In this document: positions 5,562 through 36,933 of the stretch, one piece after another
How the letters are laid out: each line of letters begins with the position of its first letter
Numbering within the stretch: the stretch's first letter is position 1
DNA from: a virus
Taxonomy: Duplodnaviria; Heunggongvirae; Uroviricota; Caudoviricetes
IMG/VR virus record: IMGVR_UViG_3300031758_000005
Length of the DNA stretch: 64,000 nucleotides
Reading direction: 5' to 3' (one strand)
The notes under the pieces: generated by a model
Told to the model about the DNA's origin: nothing
What the model saw: only the letters and a program-made list of their open reading frames with translations
Database searches by the model: none
Translations under genes and position numbers: made by a program

Positions 5562-6518
5562 ATGAGTTTCTTTGTTGAAGAAAAGTCAGATAGTGTGGAA
5601 CAACATAGTCTTTGGGCTGAAAAATATCGTCCATCGAAACTAGACAATTATATCTGCTCTGACAGTATCAGAGCAGTTTTTCAAGATTTTATTAATAAGA
5701 AACACATTCCACATATACTTTTACACGGTGGTGCTGGAACTGGTAAGACTACATTGGCAAAAATTCTAACAAGTAACATTGAATGTGATGTTATGTATGT
5801 TAATGCTAGTGATAATACCAAGGTGGAGTTTATTCGTGAAACTATTAAGCCATTTGCAGCTTCAACTGGTTTCAATCCATTGAAAGTTGTTATTTTGGAT
5901 GAAGCTGACTTTTTGTCAGCTAGCAGTCAGGCATCTTTGCGTAACTTGATGGAGACTTATAGTAGTACTACCAGGTTCATTTTAACGTGTAATTATGTTG
6001 AAAAGATTATTGATCCGTTGTGTAGTCGTAGTCAGGTATTTAAACTTGAACCACCTTCATTAAAAGATGTAGCTGTACATATCAAGAATATTTTGGATAA
6101 AGAATCTATCAAGTATGAATTGGTGGATCTAAAGAAGATTGTTCAGGATTTTTATCCTGACGTTCGTAAGATCATCAATTTTATTCAACAGAGTTCTTCG
6201 GATGGTAAATTGAAGATCTTGCAAAGTCAAGGTGCTAGCTTTGATTTGAAGAACAAGTTAATTGACTTATTAAAGTCTGCTAAGACCAATGGCAAGTCAT
6301 TTAATGAAATTCGCCAATTGATTAATGATGCGGGTACCCGTAATTTTGAAGAACTTTATACAGAACTATATTCTAGGATTGACGAATATGCAGTTGGTAA
6401 AGAAACATTAATTATTATAGAAATCGCAGAATATGTATATCAGAGCAGTATGGTCGTAGACAAGGAAATTACGTTTATGGCATGTGTTGCTAAAATTATC
6501 AAATCAATTAATAAATAA
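5562..6518 (+). CDS. Clamp loader AAA+ subunit (RFC small subunit/gp44-like)
   Basis: LWAEKYRP, Walker A GGAGTGKTT, Walker B ILDEAD, FILTCN and an SRC-like motif CSRS. Confidence 0.92.
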   Translation: MSFFVEEKSDSVEQHSLWAEKYRPSKLDNYICSDSIRAVFQDFINKKHIPHILLHGGAGTGKTTLAKILTSNIECDVMYVNASDNTKVEFIRETIKPFAASTGFNPLKVVILDEADFLSASSQASLRNLMETYSSTTRFILTCNYVEKIIDPLCSRSQVFKLEPPSLKDVAVHIKNILDKESIKYELVDLKKIVQDFYPDVRKIINFIQQSSSDGKLKILQSQGASFDLKNKLIDLLKSAKTNGKSFNEIRQLINDAGTRNFEELYTELYSRIDEYAVGKETLIIIEIAEYVYQSSMVVDKEITFMACVAKIIKSINK

Positions 6519-6519
6519 T

Positions 6520-7521
6520 ATGTTTCAAAAAAGAGCTATAGTATTAGGCGCTGGTGGTTTTATAGGTGGACATTTGGTTAAAAAACTAAAAGAAGAGGGT
6601 TATTGGGTCCGTGGAGTTGATATCAAAAATAATGAATATCATAATTATGCCGACGAATTTATTTTAGGAGATTTAACCGATTCTAACATTGTAGAATCTG
6701 TAATTTCAGAAAACATCGATGAGGTGTATCAATTAGCGGCTGATATGGGTGGCGCTTTGTATATTTTTACAGGTCAGAATGATGCAAATGTAATGCATAA
6801 TTCTGCATTAATTAATCTTAATGTAGTACATCAATGTGTTAAGAAAAAGGTAAAGAAAGTATTTTATTCATCTAGTGCCTGTGTATATCCTGAATATAAT
6901 CAGATGGATCCGAACAATCCAAAATGTGCGGAAAAAGATGCTTATCCAGCTGAACCAGACAGTGAATATGGTTGGGAAAAATTATTTAGTGAAAGATTAT
7001 ATTTAGCCTATAATAGAAATTATAAGTTAGACGTTAGAATTGCTAGGTTTCACAATATATTTGGTCCATGCGGAACATATAAAGGTGGCAAAGAAAAAGC
7101 GCCTGCCGCTATGTGTCGCAAAGCGATTGAATCGGAAAACAATTCTACGTTTGAAGTATGGGGAGATGGATTGCAAACTCGTTCATTTCTTTATATAGAC
7201 GAATGTATAGAAGGTATTTTGAGACTTATGCGACAAGATAGTTTTATTGGACCCGTAAATATTGGGTCTGAACAGATGGTATCAATAAACGATTTAGCTC
7301 AAATGGCAATTAAATTGTCTGGTAAAAATCTTAAAATAAGTAATATTGCGGGAGAAGAATTTTATAAAAAATATGGTTTTAAATGTCCTACGGGTGTACG
7401 TGGTAGAAATTCAAACAATTGTTTATATAAAGAAAAAATGAATTGGTCACCTACGCAACCACTGGATATAGGTATAAAAAATACCTACGAATGGATTTAT
7501 AATCAAATTAAAAATTTTTAA
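6520..7521 (+). CDS. NAD-dependent epimerase, GDP-mannose 3,5-epimerase-like
   Basis: GAGGFIG, YSSSACVYP, YGWEK, GGKEKAPAAMCRK and WGDGLQTRSF. Start moved to ATG 6520, just after the clamp-loader stop. Confidence 0.88.
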   Translation: MFQKRAIVLGAGGFIGGHLVKKLKEEGYWVRGVDIKNNEYHNYADEFILGDLTDSNIVESVISENIDEVYQLAADMGGALYIFTGQNDANVMHNSALINLNVVHQCVKKKVKKVFYSSSACVYPEYNQMDPNNPKCAEKDAYPAEPDSEYGWEKLFSERLYLAYNRNYKLDVRIARFHNIFGPCGTYKGGKEKAPAAMCRKAIESENNSTFEVWGDGLQTRSFLYIDECIEGILRLMRQDSFIGPVNIGSEQMVSINDLAQMAIKLSGKNLKISNIAGEEFYKKYGFKCPTGVRGRNSNNCLYKEKMNWSPTQPLDIGIKNTYEWIYNQIKNF

Positions 7522-16547: not shown

Positions 16548-16946
16548 TTATATTCCTTTTCTTTTTTTGTAATCTTCTAACGCTGCGTTAAGTGCTTCGT
16601 GTGCTAATACCGAACAATGAATTTTTACTGGTGGTAAACCACCCAATGCTTCTACTATATTATCATTACTAAAGTTTTTTTCAAGTTCTTCTATTGTTCT
16701 ACCTTTTATTAATTCTGTAGCCATAGATGAAGCTGCTATAGCACTACCACAACCAAACGTCTTGAATCTAGCATCAATTACACGATTGGTTGTTTCATCT
16801 ATTTTGAGACTAATTTTCATTATGTCTCCACAAGCAGCTGCGCCAACTTCGCCAACAGCATCGGCTTCTTTTATATCACCCATATTACGTGGGTTTATAA
16901 AATGATCCATTACTGTTTCGTTATATAATGTATAGGATTCACTCAT
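16548..16946 (-). CDS. iscU: Fe-S cluster assembly scaffold IscU/NifU-N
   Basis: DHFINPRNMG, ACGDIM, FKTFGCGSAIAASS and LPPVKIHCSVLA; all three Cys ligands are present. Confidence 0.95.
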   Translation of the reverse strand: MSESYTLYNETVMDHFINPRNMGDIKEADAVGEVGAAACGDIMKISLKIDETTNRVIDARFKTFGCGSAIAASSMATELIKGRTIEELEKNFSNDNIVEALGGLPPVKIHCSVLAHEALNAALEDYKKRKGI

Positions 16947-18058
16947 AGTCCGATTTGTTTAAGATCGTTTTTAACCATCTTATCAACAAGTTGTTCAAAT
17001 GAAGTTTTTGGTTCCCACTTTAATTCGTTTCTAGCTTTGGTACTGTCTCCTAACAACAAATCCACTTCCGCTGGTCTATAAAATTTAGGATTGATCTTGA
17101 CTAATACAGAAGATACAGGTTCATATTTTATTGCATCTTGTGTAGTAATACTAAACTCAGCAGATTCAGCCTCTCCATGCCACCCACCATCAATATCAGC
17201 CGCTTTAAATGCATACCATACAAACTCAGCAATAGTATGTGTTTCATTGCTTGAAAGTACATATTCATTTGGTGTCTCTTGATTTAACATTTTCCAAATA
17301 CCATCAACAAAGTCCTCGGCATCACTCCAATCTCTTTTAGCTTTAACATTACCCAATTCAATTGGTTGAAACGATTTACCTTCAGATATTGCTTTTTTAA
17401 TTCTAGCTACCCCCTTGGTAATCTTACGGGTAACAAACTCTTCTCCTCTTCTGGTACCTTCGTGATTAAACAACAAACCTTGTACCGCATACAAATTGTA
17501 ACTTTCTCTATACACTTTAACCAGTTGTCTAGCAGCTGATTTGCTTGCTCCATATGGACTACGAGGTTTGGATGGATGATTTTCATCTTGCGGCACATAA
17601 GCGACGTTGCCATATTCTTCGGATGAACCAGCGTTATAGAATCTACAAGTTGGTTTATGTTGACGAATAGCTTCTAGGATGTGAATTACCCCAGTAGTAT
17701 TACATTCCCAAGTTTGAGCTGGAAAGTCCCAGCTACTACCAACAAATGTCTGTGCTGCCAAATTAATAAAGTACTCTGGTTTTAACTTTTCTACAATTTT
17801 GCTAATACTATGTGCATCACTCAAATCAAAGTTAACTAATTTAAATCTGGGGTTGTTTTCTAAGTGTCTAATGTTTTCGTGATTTTTGATACTTAGTCTT
17901 CTAGCACCCCCCACGATGAAATAGTCTGTGTTTTTCAACAGATAATCTACCATAAAGCTGCCATCTTGACCAGTCACACCTGTAACAAATGCAACTTTTT
18001 TGTTTTCCATAAACGGAACAACATCATTAATATTATATATTTCCATAAGATATTTCAT
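16943..18058 (-). CDS. gmd: GDP-mannose 4,6-dehydratase
   Basis: TGVTGQDGS, NLAAQTFVGSSW, PRSPYGASK, FNHE, GEEFVTRKI and RPAEVDLLLGD. Start at 18058 (ATGA overlap) or 18010. Confidence 0.95.
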   Translation of the reverse strand: MKYLMEIYNINDVVPFMENKKVAFVTGVTGQDGSFMVDYLLKNTDYFIVGGARRLSIKNHENIRHLENNPRFKLVNFDLSDAHSISKIVEKLKPEYFINLAAQTFVGSSWDFPAQTWECNTTGVIHILEAIRQHKPTCRFYNAGSSEEYGNVAYVPQDENHPSKPRSPYGASKSAARQLVKVYRESYNLYAVQGLLFNHEGTRRGEEFVTRKITKGVARIKKAISEGKSFQPIELGNVKAKRDWSDAEDFVDGIWKMLNQETPNEYVLSSNETHTIAEFVWYAFKAADIDGGWHGEAESAEFSITTQDAIKYEPVSSVLVKINPKFYRPAEVDLLLGDSTKARNELKWEPKTSFEQLVDKMVKNDLKQIGL

Positions 18059-27707: not shown

Positions 27708-28664
27708 TTATAAATATGATTTAACCGTTTCCAAAATAGCAATATCAAATTTAGTTGTGTTAAATTGAGGAAACTCCATCTTGAAGTCACGATTGTCAAT
27801 GCTGTATCTACTATCGTGTCCTTTACGGTCTTCAACATATTTAAACCACTCCCAGTCTACTTCTATTCCAGTTATGGTACTATATACCTCTTTAATCACG
27901 TGTATAAGCTCATAGTTAGATAGTTCGTTGTCAGACCCTATCAAATACTGTTTTCCTATTTTACCATCTAATAGAACGCATATAAGTGCATTAACGTGGT
28001 CTTTGACATAGATCCAATCTCTTACATTCGACCCATTACCATATAAAGGTATGGTTTCTTTGTTGAGAAGTTTCTGAATACATACTGGAATCATCTTTTC
28101 GGTATATTGTCTGGACCCAAAGTTGTTGCTGCAATTGGTAATAATCGCTGGGAAATTATAAGTTTTGTTATAACTTCTAACCAGTAGATCGCTGGCAGCT
28201 TTAGTAGCTGAATATGGATTATTTGCTCTATAAGGACTGTCTGTAGTAAAAGATCCTTCTTTGTGATTCAATGATCCATACACTTCATCGGTGGATACGT
28301 GGATAAACTTCTTTATGTTTGTACCCTTAAGCATTTCTAACAGATTAAAAGTACCAATAATGTTTGTTTCAATAAATCTTTTTGGTCCCTTGATAGAGTT
28401 ATCCACGTGCGATTCTGCTGCAAAATGAATCACATAATCTAAATTTAATGAATCAATATATTTCTTTTGATCTGGAAAATAAGGCGCAGCAATGTTCATT
28501 GATAATCTGTGATATCTAGGATCTTTTTGAAAGGGAAGTTTTTTGTTTGCAGCATAAGTACCACAATCAATGTTATAAACCATAACAACATCATCCCTTT
28601 TTAGAATTTCTTCTATAAAGTGACTTCCAATAAATCCACATGCTCCTGTTACTAATATATTCAT
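27708..28664 (-). CDS. rmlB: dTDP-glucose 4,6-dehydratase
   Basis: VTGACGFIGS, HFAAESHVDNSI, VSTDEVYG, PYSATKA, CSNNFG and DRKGHDSRY; start at the ATGA overlap, 28664. Confidence 0.93.
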   Translation of the reverse strand: MNILVTGACGFIGSHFIEEILKRDDVVMVYNIDCGTYAANKKLPFQKDPRYHRLSMNIAAPYFPDQKKYIDSLNLDYVIHFAAESHVDNSIKGPKRFIETNIIGTFNLLEMLKGTNIKKFIHVSTDEVYGSLNHKEGSFTTDSPYRANNPYSATKAASDLLVRSYNKTYNFPAIITNCSNNFGSRQYTEKMIPVCIQKLLNKETIPLYGNGSNVRDWIYVKDHVNALICVLLDGKIGKQYLIGSDNELSNYELIHVIKEVYSTITGIEVDWEWFKYVEDRKGHDSRYSIDNRDFKMEFPQFNTTKFDIAILETVKSYL

Positions 28665-29527
28665 ATGGTCCAATTGTTAATGCAATAGTCAAAGGCTTCG
28701 TCTGCTGTTCTCATTTTGATTCCAGTTGACAATAATTTTTCGTTGCTCATCACACAATTTGATCGGGGTGTTTTGACTACATTTTTATAAAATTCATCTT
28801 CTTCCACAAATGTAAAGGTTTTGCCTTTTGCAATTGTATTCTTAAACTTTTCTACTACACCCTTGGTCGTGATATAACCACCATTGGTCACATTATATGT
28901 ACCATATGGAACTTCTTTGGTAATAGTTTGAATACAAGCACTTACAAATTCTTGTTTGTTGCTTACACTATTTTCAGCATCTAACAGTCTTTCATACTTT
29001 AATATTTTGCTTATATAATTTCTAGAATTATCAAACTCTTCAAATGGAATTCGTAATCTCCAAATATAGTGCTTTTCCCACTTCTTTACTACTTGTTCAC
29101 CTATTACTTTGGTACCACTGTAGAAACTACAGTTATTTTGCGCAAAACTAAAGTTTGGTACATCTTCTTCAGTAAAAGGATTGCCATCGGCTCTTTTACC
29201 TTCATATATACAACCACTGGAAACATGCGCTAAGGGTATATCATTTAACATACACCAATCAGTTAATATTTGCGGCCATACAATATTGCCGTGAATAGTA
29301 GCTTCTTTGTTTAATTCACATGCATCCACATTAGGTTTACCAGTATATCCCGCTGCATTTATTACAGCGCCTATGAGTGGGTATCCAGCTTCATCATACC
29401 ACTTTTCCAAATCTGCAAAAGTGGTTTTATGCGCATTTGGCCAAAGAAAAACAGGTAGCTTTAATTCAGCTAATTGCTTTTTGAATTCACTTCCAATATA
29501 ACCGATTGATCCGAATAATATAATCAT
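28661..29527 (-). CDS. NDP-4-keto-6-deoxyglucose 3,5-epimerase/4-reductase (RmlD-like, NRS/ER type)
   Basis: GSIGYIG, NAAGYTGKPNVDACE, SSGCIY, SFYSGTK, RLRIP and PRSNCV. Confidence 0.8.
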   Translation of the reverse strand: MIILFGSIGYIGSEFKKQLAELKLPVFLWPNAHKTTFADLEKWYDEAGYPLIGAVINAAGYTGKPNVDACELNKEATIHGNIVWPQILTDWCMLNDIPLAHVSSGCIYEGKRADGNPFTEEDVPNFSFAQNNCSFYSGTKVIGEQVVKKWEKHYIWRLRIPFEEFDNSRNYISKILKYERLLDAENSVSNKQEFVSACIQTITKEVPYGTYNVTNGGYITTKGVVEKFKNTIAKGKTFTFVEEDEFYKNVVKTPRSNCVMSNEKLLSTGIKMRTADEAFDYCINNWTI

Positions 29528-30366
29528 AATAATTTATTTAAATATTTTTTATACTCACTGTTTGGTAATTTTTCTATAAGCGCTTTAAGCTGCTCTTTGC
29601 TTATATATTTGCGCTTGTAGCACTCTTCTTCTATACATCCTATTTTAATTCCCTGTCTTGATTGAATAGCTTGTATATAAGCACTACTTTCAAATAATGT
29701 TTCAGCACTTCCAGCATCTAACCACGCTGTGCCTTTAGCAAATTTTACAGCAGTAAGCTGCGCTTTGTCAAGATATATTAAGTTCAAATCAGTTATTTCA
29801 ATTTCACCTCTGTTCGAAGGCTTAAGTGATTTAGCATACTGAACTACTCTTTTATCATAAAAATATAAGCCTGGTACCGCATAATTACTTTTGGGTTCAA
29901 CTGGTTTTTCTTCTATGCTTATTACGTTGTTTTCACTGTCAAATTCAATAACGCCATAAGCTCTAGGATCATTAACTTCATAACCAAAAATAATTGCACC
30001 TTCAAGTAAAGGCTTGACTCTGGGCATTCCGTGGAATATATTGTCTCCTAGTATAAGAGCAACATTATCGTCACCAATAAAGTCTTCGGCTATAATAAAA
30101 CTTTCAGCTATGCCTCTTGGCTTATATTGCACTTTATAAGTAAGCTTAACTCCCAATTGAGTGCCATCTCCAAATAGCTTTTCATAAGAAGGCAAATATT
30201 CAGGAGAAGAAATAATGCAAAAATCTTTAATACCACACGACAATAATGTGCAAAATGGATAATAAATCATTGGCTTGTCATAAACAGGCAACAATTGTTT
30301 ATTTATTGTACTGGTTAATGGATATAATCTACTACCGGTACCTCCAGCTAAAATAATCCCTTTCAT
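29524..30366 (-). CDS. rmlA: Glucose-1-phosphate thymidylyltransferase
   Basis: GIILAGGTGSRLYP, KQLLPVYDKPMIYY, LILGDNIF, EEKP-like IEEKP, SNRGEIEITD and WLDAG. Confidence 0.96.
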   Translation of the reverse strand: MKGIILAGGTGSRLYPLTSTINKQLLPVYDKPMIYYPFCTLLSCGIKDFCIISSPEYLPSYEKLFGDGTQLGVKLTYKVQYKPRGIAESFIIAEDFIGDDNVALILGDNIFHGMPRVKPLLEGAIIFGYEVNDPRAYGVIEFDSENNVISIEEKPVEPKSNYAVPGLYFYDKRVVQYAKSLKPSNRGEIEITDLNLIYLDKAQLTAVKFAKGTAWLDAGSAETLFESSAYIQAIQSRQGIKIGCIEEECYKRKYISKEQLKALIEKLPNSEYKKYLNKLL

Positions 30367-33074: not shown

Positions 33075-33617
33075 ATGAACGTTTTGGATCATCTGAAGAG
33101 CAAGACAGTGGACGATATTAAGTCTTACTGTAAAAATAGTTGTATCGAAGCAGGTGTTGCTATGATGCACGTTAATGGAGATTTTAATCTCTCCACTTTG
33201 GTACGCAATGCAAACTTCTTTGGCTTCAAAGAAGCCATGTATGTAGGCGGAAGCAAGCAGTGGGATCGTCGTGGTACTGTAGGAACACATCATTATACGG
33301 ATCTTAACCATATTAAGACTGAAGAAGATTTTGTTGCTTATGTAAATGATAACGGTTATACACTAATCGCTGTAGAAAACAACATTCCCAAGTATAGTGA
33401 TAAGACTGTATCTATTTTTAACCACTGGGTATTTACTGGTGTAGATAAGCCAATGTTTGTATTTGGCGAAGAAAAGGCTGGATTGAGTGATTATGTTCTT
33501 GATAACAGTGACTATATTGTTACTGTTCCAGCATATGGCAGTGTACGATCACTTAATGTGGGTACTACTAGTGGAATTGTAATGGGATTTTATCGCAACT
33601 ATATTGACAATAACTAA
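33075..33617 (+). CDS. SPOUT (SpoU/TrmH-family) RNA 2'-O-methyltransferase
   Basis: Motif 1 DFNLSTLVRNA, motif 2 VFGEEKAGL and motif 3 VRSLNVGTT. Confidence 0.9.
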   Translation: MNVLDHLKSKTVDDIKSYCKNSCIEAGVAMMHVNGDFNLSTLVRNANFFGFKEAMYVGGSKQWDRRGTVGTHHYTDLNHIKTEEDFVAYVNDNGYTLIAVENNIPKYSDKTVSIFNHWVFTGVDKPMFVFGEEKAGLSDYVLDNSDYIVTVPAYGSVRSLNVGTTSGIVMGFYRNYIDNN

Positions 33618-34896: not shown

Positions 34897-35229
34897 ATGA
34901 ACAAGTACATTACCGATAATTTCACCGGGTCAATTGACGATCTACTAAATCATTGTTCCAATCTAGATACATCAAAAGTAGAAGAACAAGTCAAAGCTGA
35001 AGAAAAAGAAGCCTGTATTCAAGTAATTATGAAAGAACTTGAATGTGATGAAGCTGAAGCTGAAGTCATTTATAATGAAATTGCTTTGGCAGAAGTTAAA
35101 GAAACAGTTGACAAGATGGTAGCAGAGGGTCTATTATATGTATCTGGTCACAACGAAGATGGCGAACCACTGTTTCAGCTAACTGAACTTGGTAAAGCTG
35201 TTCGTAACGAACTGGGCGACGGTAAGTAA
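34897..35229 (+). CDS. Hypothetical acidic protein
   Basis: 110-aa ORF; TATTTATA lies 3 nt upstream. Confidence 0.6.
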   Translation: MNKYITDNFTGSIDDLLNHCSNLDTSKVEEQVKAEEKEACIQVIMKELECDEAEAEVIYNEIALAEVKETVDKMVAEGLLYVSGHNEDGEPLFQLTELGKAVRNELGDGK

Positions 35230-35241
35230 TTATACCATAAT

Positions 35242-35322
35242 GCTCCGGTACTGGCGGGGTCTTCTAAGCCCTAAGTGCATAAATGGATGAAAATGGGGGT
35301 TCAAGTCCCTCCCGGAGCGCCA
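35242..35322 (+). tRNA. D-arm-less tRNA-like RNA, anticodon UCU (Arg)
   Basis: Acceptor GCTCCGG/CCGGAGC, G73, CCA; 7-nt linker TACTGGC in place of the D arm; GGGGT-CT TCT AA-GCCCT; 22-nt extra region; T arm GGGGG-TTCAAGT-CCCTC. Confidence 0.6.
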
Positions 35323-35324
35323 TT

Positions 35325-36050
35325 TTAATAAAGCCTATCTATTAAATTCCATCCATATTTTTTATACATATGTAAATTTTCTCGTTTGGTCAATTTAGTA
35401 ATACCGTTCTTTTCAATAATAATTTTCTTTGTATCGGAATTATAAAGATGTTTATCGGCACACGTAGTTGTACAGTATTTGTGAACAGAAGTTCTAGGTA
35501 AAAATATTTTTTTACAACGAATACATTCTGTTTCTTTTGAATCGAATTTTGGAAGGAAATACTTATCCCAGTTAATAACCCTACCAGAAACCCATCCATT
35601 AGGAACTTTGTTTGGATAAAATTTATTGCTTAATTTTAATTCTACATTGTGATACCATTTTTTTCCATAACCACTATTAGATGTGCCGGATTGATGTTGT
35701 GATTGAATTTTACTGAATTCGATTTTTAATTTTTGATAAATTCTATTATTTATTTTGTATTCTCTAAGTTGATTTTCGCTTTTATACCAAGCCATTGAAG
35801 CAAACGCTTTCCACATTTTCTTATATTCTACGGAAGAAGATGGAAATACAGAAGTTAATAAAAGGTGACATATATAATGTTCTCTAGCAGTCAGTTCAAC
35901 TAAATTCGATGAACAATTTAACCCACCTAAACACTTTGGAATTATATGATGTGTTTCTGTATATTGGTTTAAAACCGGATTGTTTAAACGATGATGTATT
36001 ATACGATAATACCAATTTTTATATTTATTATTTTGATCTTCTAATGTCAT
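35325..36050 (-). CDS. Free-standing HNH homing endonuclease
   Basis: ETHHIIPKCLGG..NLVELTAREHYICHLLL; GKKWYHN..GWVSGR module; C-terminal CxxC..CxxxC; inserted antisense in the tRNA region. Confidence 0.85.
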   Translation of the reverse strand: MTLEDQNNKYKNWYYRIIHHRLNNPVLNQYTETHHIIPKCLGGLNCSSNLVELTAREHYICHLLLTSVFPSSSVEYKKMWKAFASMAWYKSENQLREYKINNRIYQKLKIEFSKIQSQHQSGTSNSGYGKKWYHNVELKLSNKFYPNKVPNGWVSGRVINWDKYFLPKFDSKETECIRCKKIFLPRTSVHKYCTTTCADKHLYNSDTKKIIIEKNGITKLTKRENLHMYKKYGWNLIDRLY

Positions 36051-36167
36051 AATAAAAGTTATTTACTTATAAGTATAACTTAGAAGTTTAAAAAATAATC
36101 TTTTTGGTAATTTTACGAATATTTGTATATATTTATAATTTACCTCAAAACTTCTTGAAAAAAGAAG

Positions 36168-36224
36168 TTGATCTTTGAAAACTTAGTGGTAAGATAAAGA
36201 AGTAGTAAGTATTTGTTCTTTCAG
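36168..36224 (+). promoter_or_regulatory. Stable-RNA promoter unit 1 with boxA-like motif
   Basis: TTGATC-N16-TAAGAT; 25-bp repeat GTGGTAAGATAAAGAAGTAGTAAGT (36186-36210); GTTCTTT at 36215. Confidence 0.65.
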
Positions 36225-36304
36225 CGTGGTGGGAGAAGCACTCCTCTAGAACATCTTTGTATGGTGGAACTGCCTTGGCCTTTAACCAAAGGGGGTCACC
36301 GACG
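36225..36304 (+). ncRNA. Candidate ~80-nt structured RNA
   Basis: Closing stem CGT-GGTG/CACC-G-ACG; hairpins GGAG/CTCC and CCTTGG/CCAA-A-GG; lies directly after a promoter and boxA. Confidence 0.35.
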
Positions 36305-36322
36305 AAAGAATAAAATACTTAG

Positions 36323-36381
36323 TTGACAAAACAAAAAATTGTGGTAAGATAAAAAAGTAGTAAGTAATAGTTCTTTAACAA
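36323..36381 (+). promoter_or_regulatory. Stable-RNA promoter unit 2 with boxA-like motif
   Basis: TTGACA-N16-TAAGAT; repeat GTGGTAAGATAAAAAAGTAGTAAGT (36341-36365); GTTCTTTAACAA at 36370. Confidence 0.75.
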
Positions 36382-36389
36382 ATTTTAAT

Positions 36390-36466
36390 GGCCTTGTAGC
36401 TCAGTTGGTAGTAGCAGAAGCCTTTTAAGCTTTTGGTCGTGGGTTCGAGTCCCACCGGGGCCACCA
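36390..36466 (+). tRNA. tRNA-Lys(UUU)
   Basis: GGCCTTG/CGGGGCC, A-CCA; GAAGC-CT TTT AA-GCTTT; T loop TTCGAGT. Confidence 0.95.
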
Positions 36467-36470
36467 TTTT

Positions 36471-36684
36471 AACTGGTAATAAACGAAGTAAATCATATAT
36501 TGTGGGACAACTACACTTTTAAGTATCGTGATTGATTACGAAAGCATTTTTTCCGTGTAGAATTTGACTTTCATCATTAAACATATTAAATGATTAACCC
36601 AAACACAACTGTGTGCTGTGCTGAAAAATGTCCGCTACACAGCGATGCTTACGTAGATAAGTAACTCAATGAATATTACCAGTT
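36471..36684 (+). ncRNA. Candidate 214-nt multibranched structured RNA
   Basis: Perfect 11-bp terminal stem AACTGGTAATA/TATTACCAGTT; inner stems CTACAC/GTGTAG, TCGTGA/TTACGA, ATCATT/AATGAT, CTGTGT/ACACAG and GCTTA/TAAGT. Confidence 0.6.
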
Positions 36685-36692
36685 CATTTAAC

Positions 36693-36768
36693 GGAGTCAT
36701 CGTCTAACGGTTTAGGATAATTCCCTTTCACGGAATAGATCAGAGTTCGATTCTCTGTGGCTCTACCA
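36693..36768 (+). tRNA. tRNA-Glu(UUC)
   Basis: GGAGTCA/TGGCTCT, A-CCA; ATTCC-CT TTC AC-GGAAT; T loop TTCGATT. Confidence 0.93.
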
Positions 36769-36775
36769 TTTGATG

Positions 36776-36933
36776 TTTGGTTGTATAGCTAAGAAAAACA
36801 ACTTGGTGGAGGGTATATAACCAAAATGCCCCTAGAGTTGGAAGTTCTCTTAAAAAACTTCTTGGTTGCGGGGTTAGCGCATGGTATACTCTGTTTGTTG
36901 GGTGGATAGAGTATTCAATAGATACACCCAACA
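36776..36933 (+). ncRNA. Candidate 158-nt structured RNA ending in an H-type pseudoknot
   Basis: 12-bp stem 36776-87/36814-25; GCCCC/GGGGT enclosing GAAGTT/AACTTC; crossing stems ATACTCT/AGAGTAT and TGTTGGGTG/CACCCAACA. Confidence 0.6.

Follow-up and report, generated by a model that had tools for sequence, protein, structure and literature searches.

A stem-closed 214-nt RNA element between two phage tRNA genes: filled and empty alleles, joined RNA ends and a possible mobile cassette

Small RNAs in phage tRNA clusters have been known since T4 RNAC/RNAD, without a handle on their origin or role. The same question is raised by a non-coding, AT-rich, stem-closed element of 214 nt (36471-36684, + strand) that lies between a tRNA-Lys and a tRNA-Glu gene in a phage genome segment of 64,000 nt (the window). 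Is this element a dedicated RNA gene, a mobile insert or mere filler? The locus offers natural filled and empty alleles, a neighbouring homing endonuclease that possibly drives spread, and RNA-defined ends that suggest circularisation. A preliminary description, made from the letters of the window alone, had regarded the element as a discrete, processed and multibranched non-coding RNA, for example a protein decoy or an anti-defence RNA.

The window is AT-rich (GC about 33%). The nearest match of its family-B DNA polymerase is that of Microcystis phage Mel-JY01 (42% amino acid identity), and its structural genes are T4-like and cyanophage-like. Window-like DNA is present in more than 10 lake and freshwater metagenome runs.

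The tRNA/RNA array and the element within it

tRNAs and non-tRNA RNAs alternate in an array at 36100-39150, which is served by repeated sigma-70-type promoters and broken by two free-standing endonuclease ORFs (35325-36050 on the - strand and 37200-37979 on the + strand). A promoter scan places one such promoter (TTGACA, 16 nt, TG-n-TAAGAT) at 36323-36350 on the + strand, ahead of tRNA-Lys, the element and tRNA-Glu; this promoter repeat occurs a second time at 38408-38435. The upstream neighbour of the element, tRNA-Lys(UUU) with an encoded CCA (36390-36466, + strand), is called by ARAGORN and scores 64.2 bits with the Rfam tRNA model. The downstream neighbour, tRNA-Glu(UUC) (36693-36768, + strand), is also called by ARAGORN.

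Several other members of the array deserve description. A structured RNA of about 98 nt at 36213-36310, with its own promoter (TTGATC, 16 nt, TAAGAT at about 36165-36192), is kept in all seven lineages and has no Rfam match. Its changes are apparently compensatory (GCGTGG..CCGACG versus GCACGG..CCAACA; CCTTGG/CCAAGG versus CCTCGG/CCGAGG). The stretch directly 3' of tRNA-Glu (36771-36876) gives a sub-threshold match to wcaG (RF01761, 30.2 bits versus a gathering threshold of 42, E = 0.0086) and is kept in relatives. Farther downstream, an RNA of about 164 nt (36963-37126) has ends that pair like an acceptor stem (AGCTGG...CCAGCT) and a 3' terminus, ACCATTT, like that of true tRNAs. It is called a tRNA by neither ARAGORN nor Rfam, and an RNA contig of run X15 jumps from 36939 to 37101, so some variants are without it. 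A tRNA-Arg(UCU)-like gene at 35242-35319 combines a reduced D region with a long variable region (31 bits with the Rfam tRNA model, no ARAGORN call); at its position a normal tRNA-Arg(UCU) is found in L020, L021 and L038, and the odd form in L025 and L031. A UAU anticodon and a long extra arm characterise two further tRNAs of 93-94 nt (38097-38190 and 38958-39050), which recur in all relatives. The manA and wcaG RNAs were first associated with gene classes such as sugar-nucleotide genes. The window encodes a GDP-mannose 4,6-dehydratase, epimerases, an RmlD-like gene and a nucleotidyl transferase, and a SpoU-family RNA methylase gene lies just upstream of the RNA array (6484-7521, 16943-18058, 27708-30366 and 33075-33617 for these genes together).

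A leader motif, GTTCTTTAAC or AATTTAA, stands ahead of nearly every RNA gene of the array (36368-36377, 36948-36957, 38455-38464, 38559-38568 and others). The hexamer TTTAAC is about 3-fold enriched there, with 7 occurrences in 3.1 kb (2.3 per kb versus 0.8 per kb in the window). The leader motif with TTTAAC may be a boxA-like or processing signal, or a signal for the joining of cassettes.

The element is closed by the arms AACTGGTAATA (36471-36481, the same in all variants) and TATTACCAGTT (36674-36684), both on the + strand. The arms are fully complementary, and the perfect 11-bp terminal stem of the preliminary description is real. Its placement between the two tRNA genes also holds: the stem begins at the fifth nt after the CCA of tRNA-Lys and stops 8 nt before tRNA-Glu. 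Among dinucleotide-preserving shuffles of the 226-nt spacer, a perfect terminal stem of at least 11 bp arose in 2 of 20,000 (P ~1e-4). The core of the stem is a 9-bp inverted repeat, CTGGTAATA (36473-36481) with TATTACCAG, which reaches 11 bp with flanking AA/TT. The element has no ORF, as described earlier; the longest stop-to-stop frames are of 20-36 aa, and no frame is conserved. A small peptide of 24 aa from the sole internal ATG frame (36590-36664) was rejected as a candidate product, its frame being cut to 15 codons in the relatives' variant.

The element has no match at the gathering thresholds of Rfam 15, whose families include group I introns, hammerhead, twister, YrlA, HEARO, manA and wcaG; this supports the earlier proposal. 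At E <= 10 the sole Rfam overlap is HPnc0260 on the minus strand (30 bits versus a gathering threshold of 59, E = 3.7), and neither a group I intron nor any other ribozyme matches the element at that limit. A blastn search (word 11) of 36100-37200 against 50,697 phage records returned matches to tRNA segments only. Two tRNA-related candidates were discarded. A tRNA-like or permuted-tRNA reading failed, with ARAGORN on the doubled circle returning nothing and the T-loop and hammerhead core motifs absent. Mimicry of the tRNA-Lys anticodon loop by CTTTTAAG (36515-36522) was dropped because its central base, position 51, varies between A, T and G.

The interior of the multibranched fold fared less well than its closing stem. 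All five inner helices that had been named are present (36511-16/36555-60, 36526-31/36536-41, 36573-78/36589-94, 36609-14/36637-42 and 36647-51/36658-62). Forcing all of them together gives -40.0 kcal/mol versus -44.2 kcal/mol for the minimum free energy fold, a cost of 4-7 kcal/mol. Folding is modestly better than in shuffles, with a borderline z-score of -2.0 and 7 of 200 shuffles equally good; the minus strand of the element folds slightly better (z = -3.0). A terminator-like hairpin on that strand (36632-36645) was considered and set aside, as it is destroyed in the L029 variant. Covariation was not found: the three near-identical variants differ at 12 sites, with 0 double compensatory changes. 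Seven or eight of the 12 variable sites are unpaired in single-sequence predictions. The other four or five fall in predicted pairs, where most changes are to or from G-U and at least one breaks a pair (147/171, U-A to C-A). The predicted pairing probability of the variable sites is lower (0.40 versus 0.59, one-sided P = 0.03). Support for the fold beyond the closing stem is weak.

The modest z-score and the lack of covariation are compatible with a neutral leftover. According to this account, the element is filler of a single origin, for example through illegitimate recombination between TTTAAC leaders; its stem spares the folding of the neighbouring tRNAs, and the joints seen in RNA data (described below) are library or assembly artefacts of an abundant processing by-product. 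A perfect 11-bp stem exactly at the borders, expected by chance at P ~1e-4, argues against it.

Filled and empty alleles of the tRNA-Lys/tRNA-Glu junction

Relatives of the window were retrieved from IMG/VR by way of a neighbouring structural protein and a SpoU-type methylase gene. Seven of these contigs, from five lineages (L020; L021-23; L025; L031; L038), have an empty site that reads CCA-(T/A)TTTAAC-GG between tRNA-Lys and tRNA-Glu. The filled lineages are three: the window, four mutually identical IMG/VR contigs (L026-29) and one JGI metagenome contig (L042). Homologues of the element therefore exist, always at the same Lys-Glu site and always 214 nt long. The closest relative, L020, has a backbone that is 94% identical to that of the window, and the 370 nt to the left of the site are 96.5% identical. 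Both of its flanking tRNAs are those of the window, 219 nt are missing, and the site reads CCATTTTAACGG.

Because of a 6-nt repeat, the extra 219 nt of the window can be placed on the + strand at 36474-36692 or, equivalently, at 36468-36686. The left direct repeat TTTAAC (36468-36473, + strand) is, in the alignments, the sole spacer sequence at the empty site of the relatives. The right one (36687-36692, + strand) extends to the RNase P cleavage site of tRNA-Glu. The L029-type site reads CCAT[TTTAA][CTGGTAATA...TATTACCAG][TTTAA]CGG, with a single repeat at empty sites. The window variant has 4 nt, TTCA at 36683-36686 on the + strand (= CATT at 36685-88), that are missing in L029 and L042, and its 11-bp stem is kept. 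The insertion thus amounts to 215-219 bp in a 7-nt Lys-Glu spacer. Filled sites have TTTAA(C) on both sides of the insert and empty sites have it once; TTTAAC is also the recurrent leader motif of the array. Within the element, the window differs from L029 at 12 positions and from L042 at 10, and L029 differs from L042 at 3; identity among the three variants is 94-99%. Exact filled and empty alleles are found among close relatives, in more than one flanking background. The element is a precise presence/absence polymorphism, and it is dispensable because the closest relative is without it.

Such a polymorphism recalls a miniature inverted-repeat transposable element (MITE). In that case the element would be a non-autonomous transposon with 9-bp terminal inverted repeats (CTGGTAATA/TATTACCAG), moved by a transposase in trans and flanked by a duplicated 5-bp TTTAA target, and its RNA would be a mere passenger of the tRNA transcript. 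Terminal inverted repeats, by which MITEs are recognised, are present (9 bp). The L029-type filled site compared with the empty CCATTTTAACGG fits this account, as do the exact presence/absence boundaries, the size (210 bp) and the absence of coding capacity. However, all copies found occupy one site. The 64-kb window and some 650 kb of related loci contain no second copy, nor did an nhmmer profile of the three variants find a distant one there. An exact 27-mer of the element's 5' end has no match in IMG/VR because the relatives differ at position 24, and two internal 18-mers recovered from IMG/VR only the 4 known contigs and 2 chance matches. Scans for the inverted-repeat pattern gave 3 matches in GTDB genomes, all with unrelated interiors and hence due to chance, and in JGI metagenomes one true copy (L042) and two chance matches in coding DNA. 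The pattern scans of IMG/VR, GTDB and JGI metagenomes thus returned same-site copies or chance matches only; neither several loci nor a parent element with a transposase was found there, and no transposase or longer element with these ends was seen. The recurrence of TTTAAC as a leader motif of the array also speaks against this account. In addition, the RNA junctions described below are unlike a transposon circle with a single target-length spacer, and they occur in libraries alongside those of a neighbouring RNA that is not mobile. Transposition of this kind is improbable.

Comparison of the copies with their surroundings bears on how the element came to its site. Between the window and L029, identity is 93.5-94.4% in the element, 96% in tRNA-Lys, 86% in the endonuclease gene, 83% in the upstream promoter/RNA region, 80% in orf34897 and 68% in tRNA-Glu. 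Neighbouring non-coding DNA is 74-90% identical and has indels, whereas the element variants are free of indels. Three types of tRNA-Glu allele stand beside the element: the L020 type in the window, an own type in L029 and the L025 type in L042. The L020 and L025 types also occur with empty sites, so that two of the three types are known both filled and empty. Both D-loop types of tRNA-Lys likewise occur filled and empty. On its left and right alike, the insert is sharply bounded in several flanking backgrounds. This suggests a site-specific process, either targeted insertion or homing-type repair of a break at the junction, since ordinary homologous exchange would rarely give such borders. 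An identity of 94-99% beside differing tRNA alleles points to site-specific spread between genomes rather than vertical descent. That the copies are more conserved than their surroundings, in several backgrounds of flanking alleles, is difficult to reconcile with a neutral leftover.

The high similarity of the copies can be explained equally well by purifying selection on a functional RNA. The element would then be a dedicated gene for a stable, trans-acting non-coding RNA similar to T4 RNAC/RNAD or to manA/wcaG, and an optional module of a mosaic RNA operon. It would be long-lived owing to its stem and its circularisation, its loops would be bound by a partner (a protein, or a factor of host RNA repair or defence), and its patchy distribution would result from cassette shuffling with selection in some hosts. 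The three variants are exactly 214 nt long and indel-free, at 94-99% identity versus 74-90% in neighbouring non-coding DNA. Their variable sites are less paired (0.40 vs 0.59, P = 0.03), and the changes in consensus pairs remain pairable. The array also holds conserved non-tRNA RNAs (36213-36310, the wcaG-like stretch of 30 bits and a manA-like RNA at 38570-38869), and RNA of the element is seen in libraries from three studies, with window-like DNA in more than 10 freshwater runs. On the other hand, the closest relative and five of the eight lineages are without the element, and the similarity could also be due to recent spread. The folding z-score is only -2.0, covariation is absent, no distant homologue occurs at the other loci searched, and CTTTTAAG, with its likeness to the anticodon loop of tRNA-Lys, has A, T or G at its centre. 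A dedicated RNA gene is possible but doubtful.

A second gene shares the distribution of the element. The ORF at 35325-36050 on the - strand is a free-standing HNH homing-endonuclease gene (motif HHIIPK..GG..N..EH..H; PHROG 655, E 3.9e-36) that lies 420 nt upstream of the element. Among lineages whose contigs span this region, the window and L026-29 have both (85% amino acid identity of the endonuclease), and both are missing in L020, L021-23, L025, L031 and L038. Across seven lineages, two have both and five have neither. The endonuclease gene is itself an exact indel that is found only in lineages also carrying the 214-nt element, and a protein search of IMG/VR returned no carriers beyond the same 4 contigs. 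Within 1.4 kb, the window and L020 differ by exactly two indels, the HNH gene and the element. In the window, the 370 nt between the two resemble L020 (96.5%) rather than L029, and a conversion tract common to both indels is not apparent. A link between endonuclease and element is suggested by this co-occurrence, at two versus five lineages. A homologue of the second endonuclease of the array (37200-37979) is found in L024 and L030, after a divergent tRNA-Glu-like gene.

Phage endonucleases of the free-standing kind cleave DNA hundreds of bp away from the genes that encode them and drive co-conversion, and they are able to mobilise endonuclease-less introns in trans (PMC2988022). SegB of T4 acts in this way within the T4 tRNA cluster (PMC2330249). 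Homing itself does not create the TTTAAC duplication, which weighs against homing at this site; TTTAAC also recurs in the leaders of the array. An origin as a selfish or mobile insert appears at least as likely as a dedicated function because the insert is an indel flanked by direct repeats, is absent in the closest relatives and co-occurs with an endonuclease gene.

RNA of the element and its joined ends

Metatranscriptome contigs of four runs (X15, X16, X17 and X19) from three studies were aligned to 35200-39300, and interpretation of the array was restricted to the parts with RNA cover. The two endonuclease genes have a depth of about zero, compared with 10-230 across 36296-36980 and a maximum of 3,430 within 38625-38761. 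Since the endonuclease genes have about zero depth and the array has high depth, the signal is RNA and not contaminating phage DNA. The contigs are unstranded; the element is assigned to the + strand because the promoter and the two tRNAs lie on it.

Linear precursors are represented by contigs of X15 (36357-36694) and X16 (36444-36694), which run through the element into an L042-type tRNA-Glu. The X15 contigs (2 records) start at 36357, which is the predicted transcription start, 7 nt after the -10 hexamer. Stable RNAs of phage tRNA clusters are non-coding, co-oriented and co-transcribed with tRNAs, and the element shares all three properties.

Other contigs are circularly permuted. One from X17 (lake, 2025) is 251 nt long and one from X19 (river, 2018) 249 nt. 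Their lengths equal the unit length + 30 (k-1) and their start points are arbitrary, and this combination is what an isolated cycle in an assembly graph produces. The X19 unit of 219 nt defines a head-to-tail RNA species at 36468-36686 on the + strand; the X17 unit of 221 nt consists of 36468-36684 plus TAAC. At the X17 junction, ...CCAGTT-TAAC|TTTAAC-TGG..., the whole spacer is retained, from the second nt after CCA to the nt before G1 of tRNA-Glu. The X19 junction, ...CCAGTTCA|TTTAACTGG..., is ambiguous over 6 nt (microhomology), and X19 also has a minor variant. The junctions observed thus read CCAG-TTTAAC-TTTAAC-TGG and CCAG-TTCATTTAAC-TGG, and each of the three junction types, in two studies, has 36468 as its 5' partner. 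Depth in the RNA data is 8-36 for the element and 8-18 for the junction contigs. No head-to-tail junction of the element was found in X15 or X16, so that two of the four runs, from two studies, have one. It was not found in IMG/VR DNA contigs either, only 4 of which hold the element.

The earlier proposal of a discrete processed RNA is supported by these contigs, which begin and end exactly at the borders of the element and are joined 3' to 5' in two studies. A discrete RNA is made from the element; it begins at U36468, terminates at 36686-36692 and occurs with its two ends joined. As judged from the assembled contigs, the end-joined RNA is probably circular. The share of joined molecules is not derivable from such contigs, which are assemblies and not reads. 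Reverse-transcriptase template switching or ligation in vitro could also be the source of the junctions. Their occurrence in two of four runs only, one of them within a 6-nt microhomology, would suit a neutral leftover with artefactual joints. However, the joining point 36468 is shared by two studies and three junction variants, and at a contig depth of 8-18 rare template switches are unlikely to assemble. Taken with the stem and the conservation of the copies, a neutral leftover is improbable.

Another RNA of the array behaves similarly. A stem-closed, manA-like RNA of about 295 nt (38570-38869; RF01745 weak, 14 bits) lies between tRNA-Leu(UAA) and a tRNA-Gly-like gene. It has paired ends and a flanking direct repeat, ATTTAA, and is kept in all relatives. 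Its depth is 3,430 in X15, and X17 and X19 contain joints from 38862/3 to 38570/2, with +T and +TG variants (1-2 nt). No head-to-tail joint of the spacer RNAs at 36213-36310 and 36771-36940 is among those listed.

A possible mobile RNA cassette and its known counterparts

The reading that we favour, at somewhat less than an even chance, treats the element as an accessory RNA cassette of homing-like mobility that is cut from its transcript by tRNA processing and whose stem-clamped ends are ligated. Transcription from the promoter at 36323-36350 gives a tRNA-Lys-element-tRNA-Glu precursor, which is seen in the linear RNA contigs and is assigned to the + strand. The tRNA-maturing enzymes would then release the element: a cut 1 nt after the CCA of tRNA-Lys would give the 5' end U36468, and RNase P cleavage before G1 of tRNA-Glu, with or without 3' trimming, would give the 3' end at 36686-36692. 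The 11-bp stem would clamp both RNA ends together, and an RNA ligase acting on the stem-held 5'-P and 3'-OH ends could close the circle. Pfam and PHROG scans of 34 ORFs of the window found no RNA ligase or RtcB. The insert may be tolerated, in the manner of an intron, because tRNA processing strips it from the RNA.

At the DNA level, the cassette would spread by homing-type gene conversion at the Lys/Glu junction, presumably linked to the HNH endonuclease 420 nt upstream. The insert would split the target of this enzyme and thereby protect its carrier. Under homing, cleavage would be expected at or close to CCATTTTAAC|GG and confined to the empty allele. The element RNA may have a sequence-specific role in trans, for which there is no support yet. 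As for the suggested role as a protein decoy or anti-defence RNA, nothing speaks for or against it.

In its fullest form, the proposal would make the element a phage circular RNA that is also a mobile element, brought into a tRNA spacer by endonuclease-driven homing, excised by the tRNA processing of the cell and ligated into a stable circle. This complete combination is rather unlikely to hold in all its parts. It would be, in effect, an "intron without a ribozyme", cut out by tRNA-processing enzymes instead of self-splicing, and phage tRNA operons would then be a nursery for circular RNAs. If the favoured cassette reading is true, tRNA processing and an end-clamping stem would offer bacteria and phages a simple natural way to make circular RNA, and non-coding inserts could spread like introns without being ribozymes. 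If the junctions are technical, a widespread group of freshwater phages still has, in the element, an RNA cassette that is optional and moves laterally.

The mycobacteriophage elements MPME1/2 are ultra-small phage mobile elements. The element resembles these and MITEs in its short terminal inverted repeats, short flanking repeat, size class (about 0.2-0.4 kb) and exact insertion polymorphism. Unlike them, it occupies a single site in all data and has no coding capacity, transposase or multi-copy family.

RNAC and RNAD of T4 (stable RNA species 1 and 2) are RNAs of the tRNA cluster (PMC3014915, PMC9697503, PMC2330249). Like the element, they are small non-coding RNAs that are co-transcribed with the phage tRNA genes among which they lie, are present or absent among related phages, and share their cluster with a homing endonuclease gene (segB in T4). 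The element differs from them in having no sequence match to them, in its greater length (214 nt) and in being an exact insertion with direct repeats. It is also joined head to tail in RNA data, whereas two reviews on RNAC/RNAD mention no circular forms.

The manA and wcaG RNA motifs of cyanophages (RF01745, RF01761) provide a second comparison (PMC2864571). The manA-like RNA at 38570-38869 is, like the element, closed by a stem, located between tRNAs, flanked by a 6-nt repeat (ATTTAA) and represented by joined contigs in the same runs. In contrast to this RNA, the element is optional, whereas the manA-like RNA is kept in all relatives, and the two have no sequence or Rfam similarity. The manA-like RNA is also far more abundant (depth up to 3,430 vs 8-36).

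Collaborative homing in trans is known from T4, in which mobE mobilises the endonuclease-less nrdB group I intron (PMC2988022). The element shares with such introns an exact presence/absence pattern, a neighbouring free-standing endonuclease (the HNH gene), varied flanking backgrounds and removal at the RNA level, so that the flanking genes still work. It differs from group I introns in that it matches no ribozyme in Rfam (E <= 10) and lies between two genes, not within one. Its removal would also use tRNA-processing enzymes.

Circles are formed from tRNA introns in archaea and eukaryotes, and RNA ligase-dependent circular small RNAs have been described (PMC9014305, PMC4344496). As with tRNA-intron circles, the element would be freed by tRNA-maturation cuts and its paired ends would be ligated. 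In contrast to them, it is an inter-tRNA spacer of a bacterial virus, and its predicted ends are 5'-P and 3'-OH, not those left by a splicing endonuclease.
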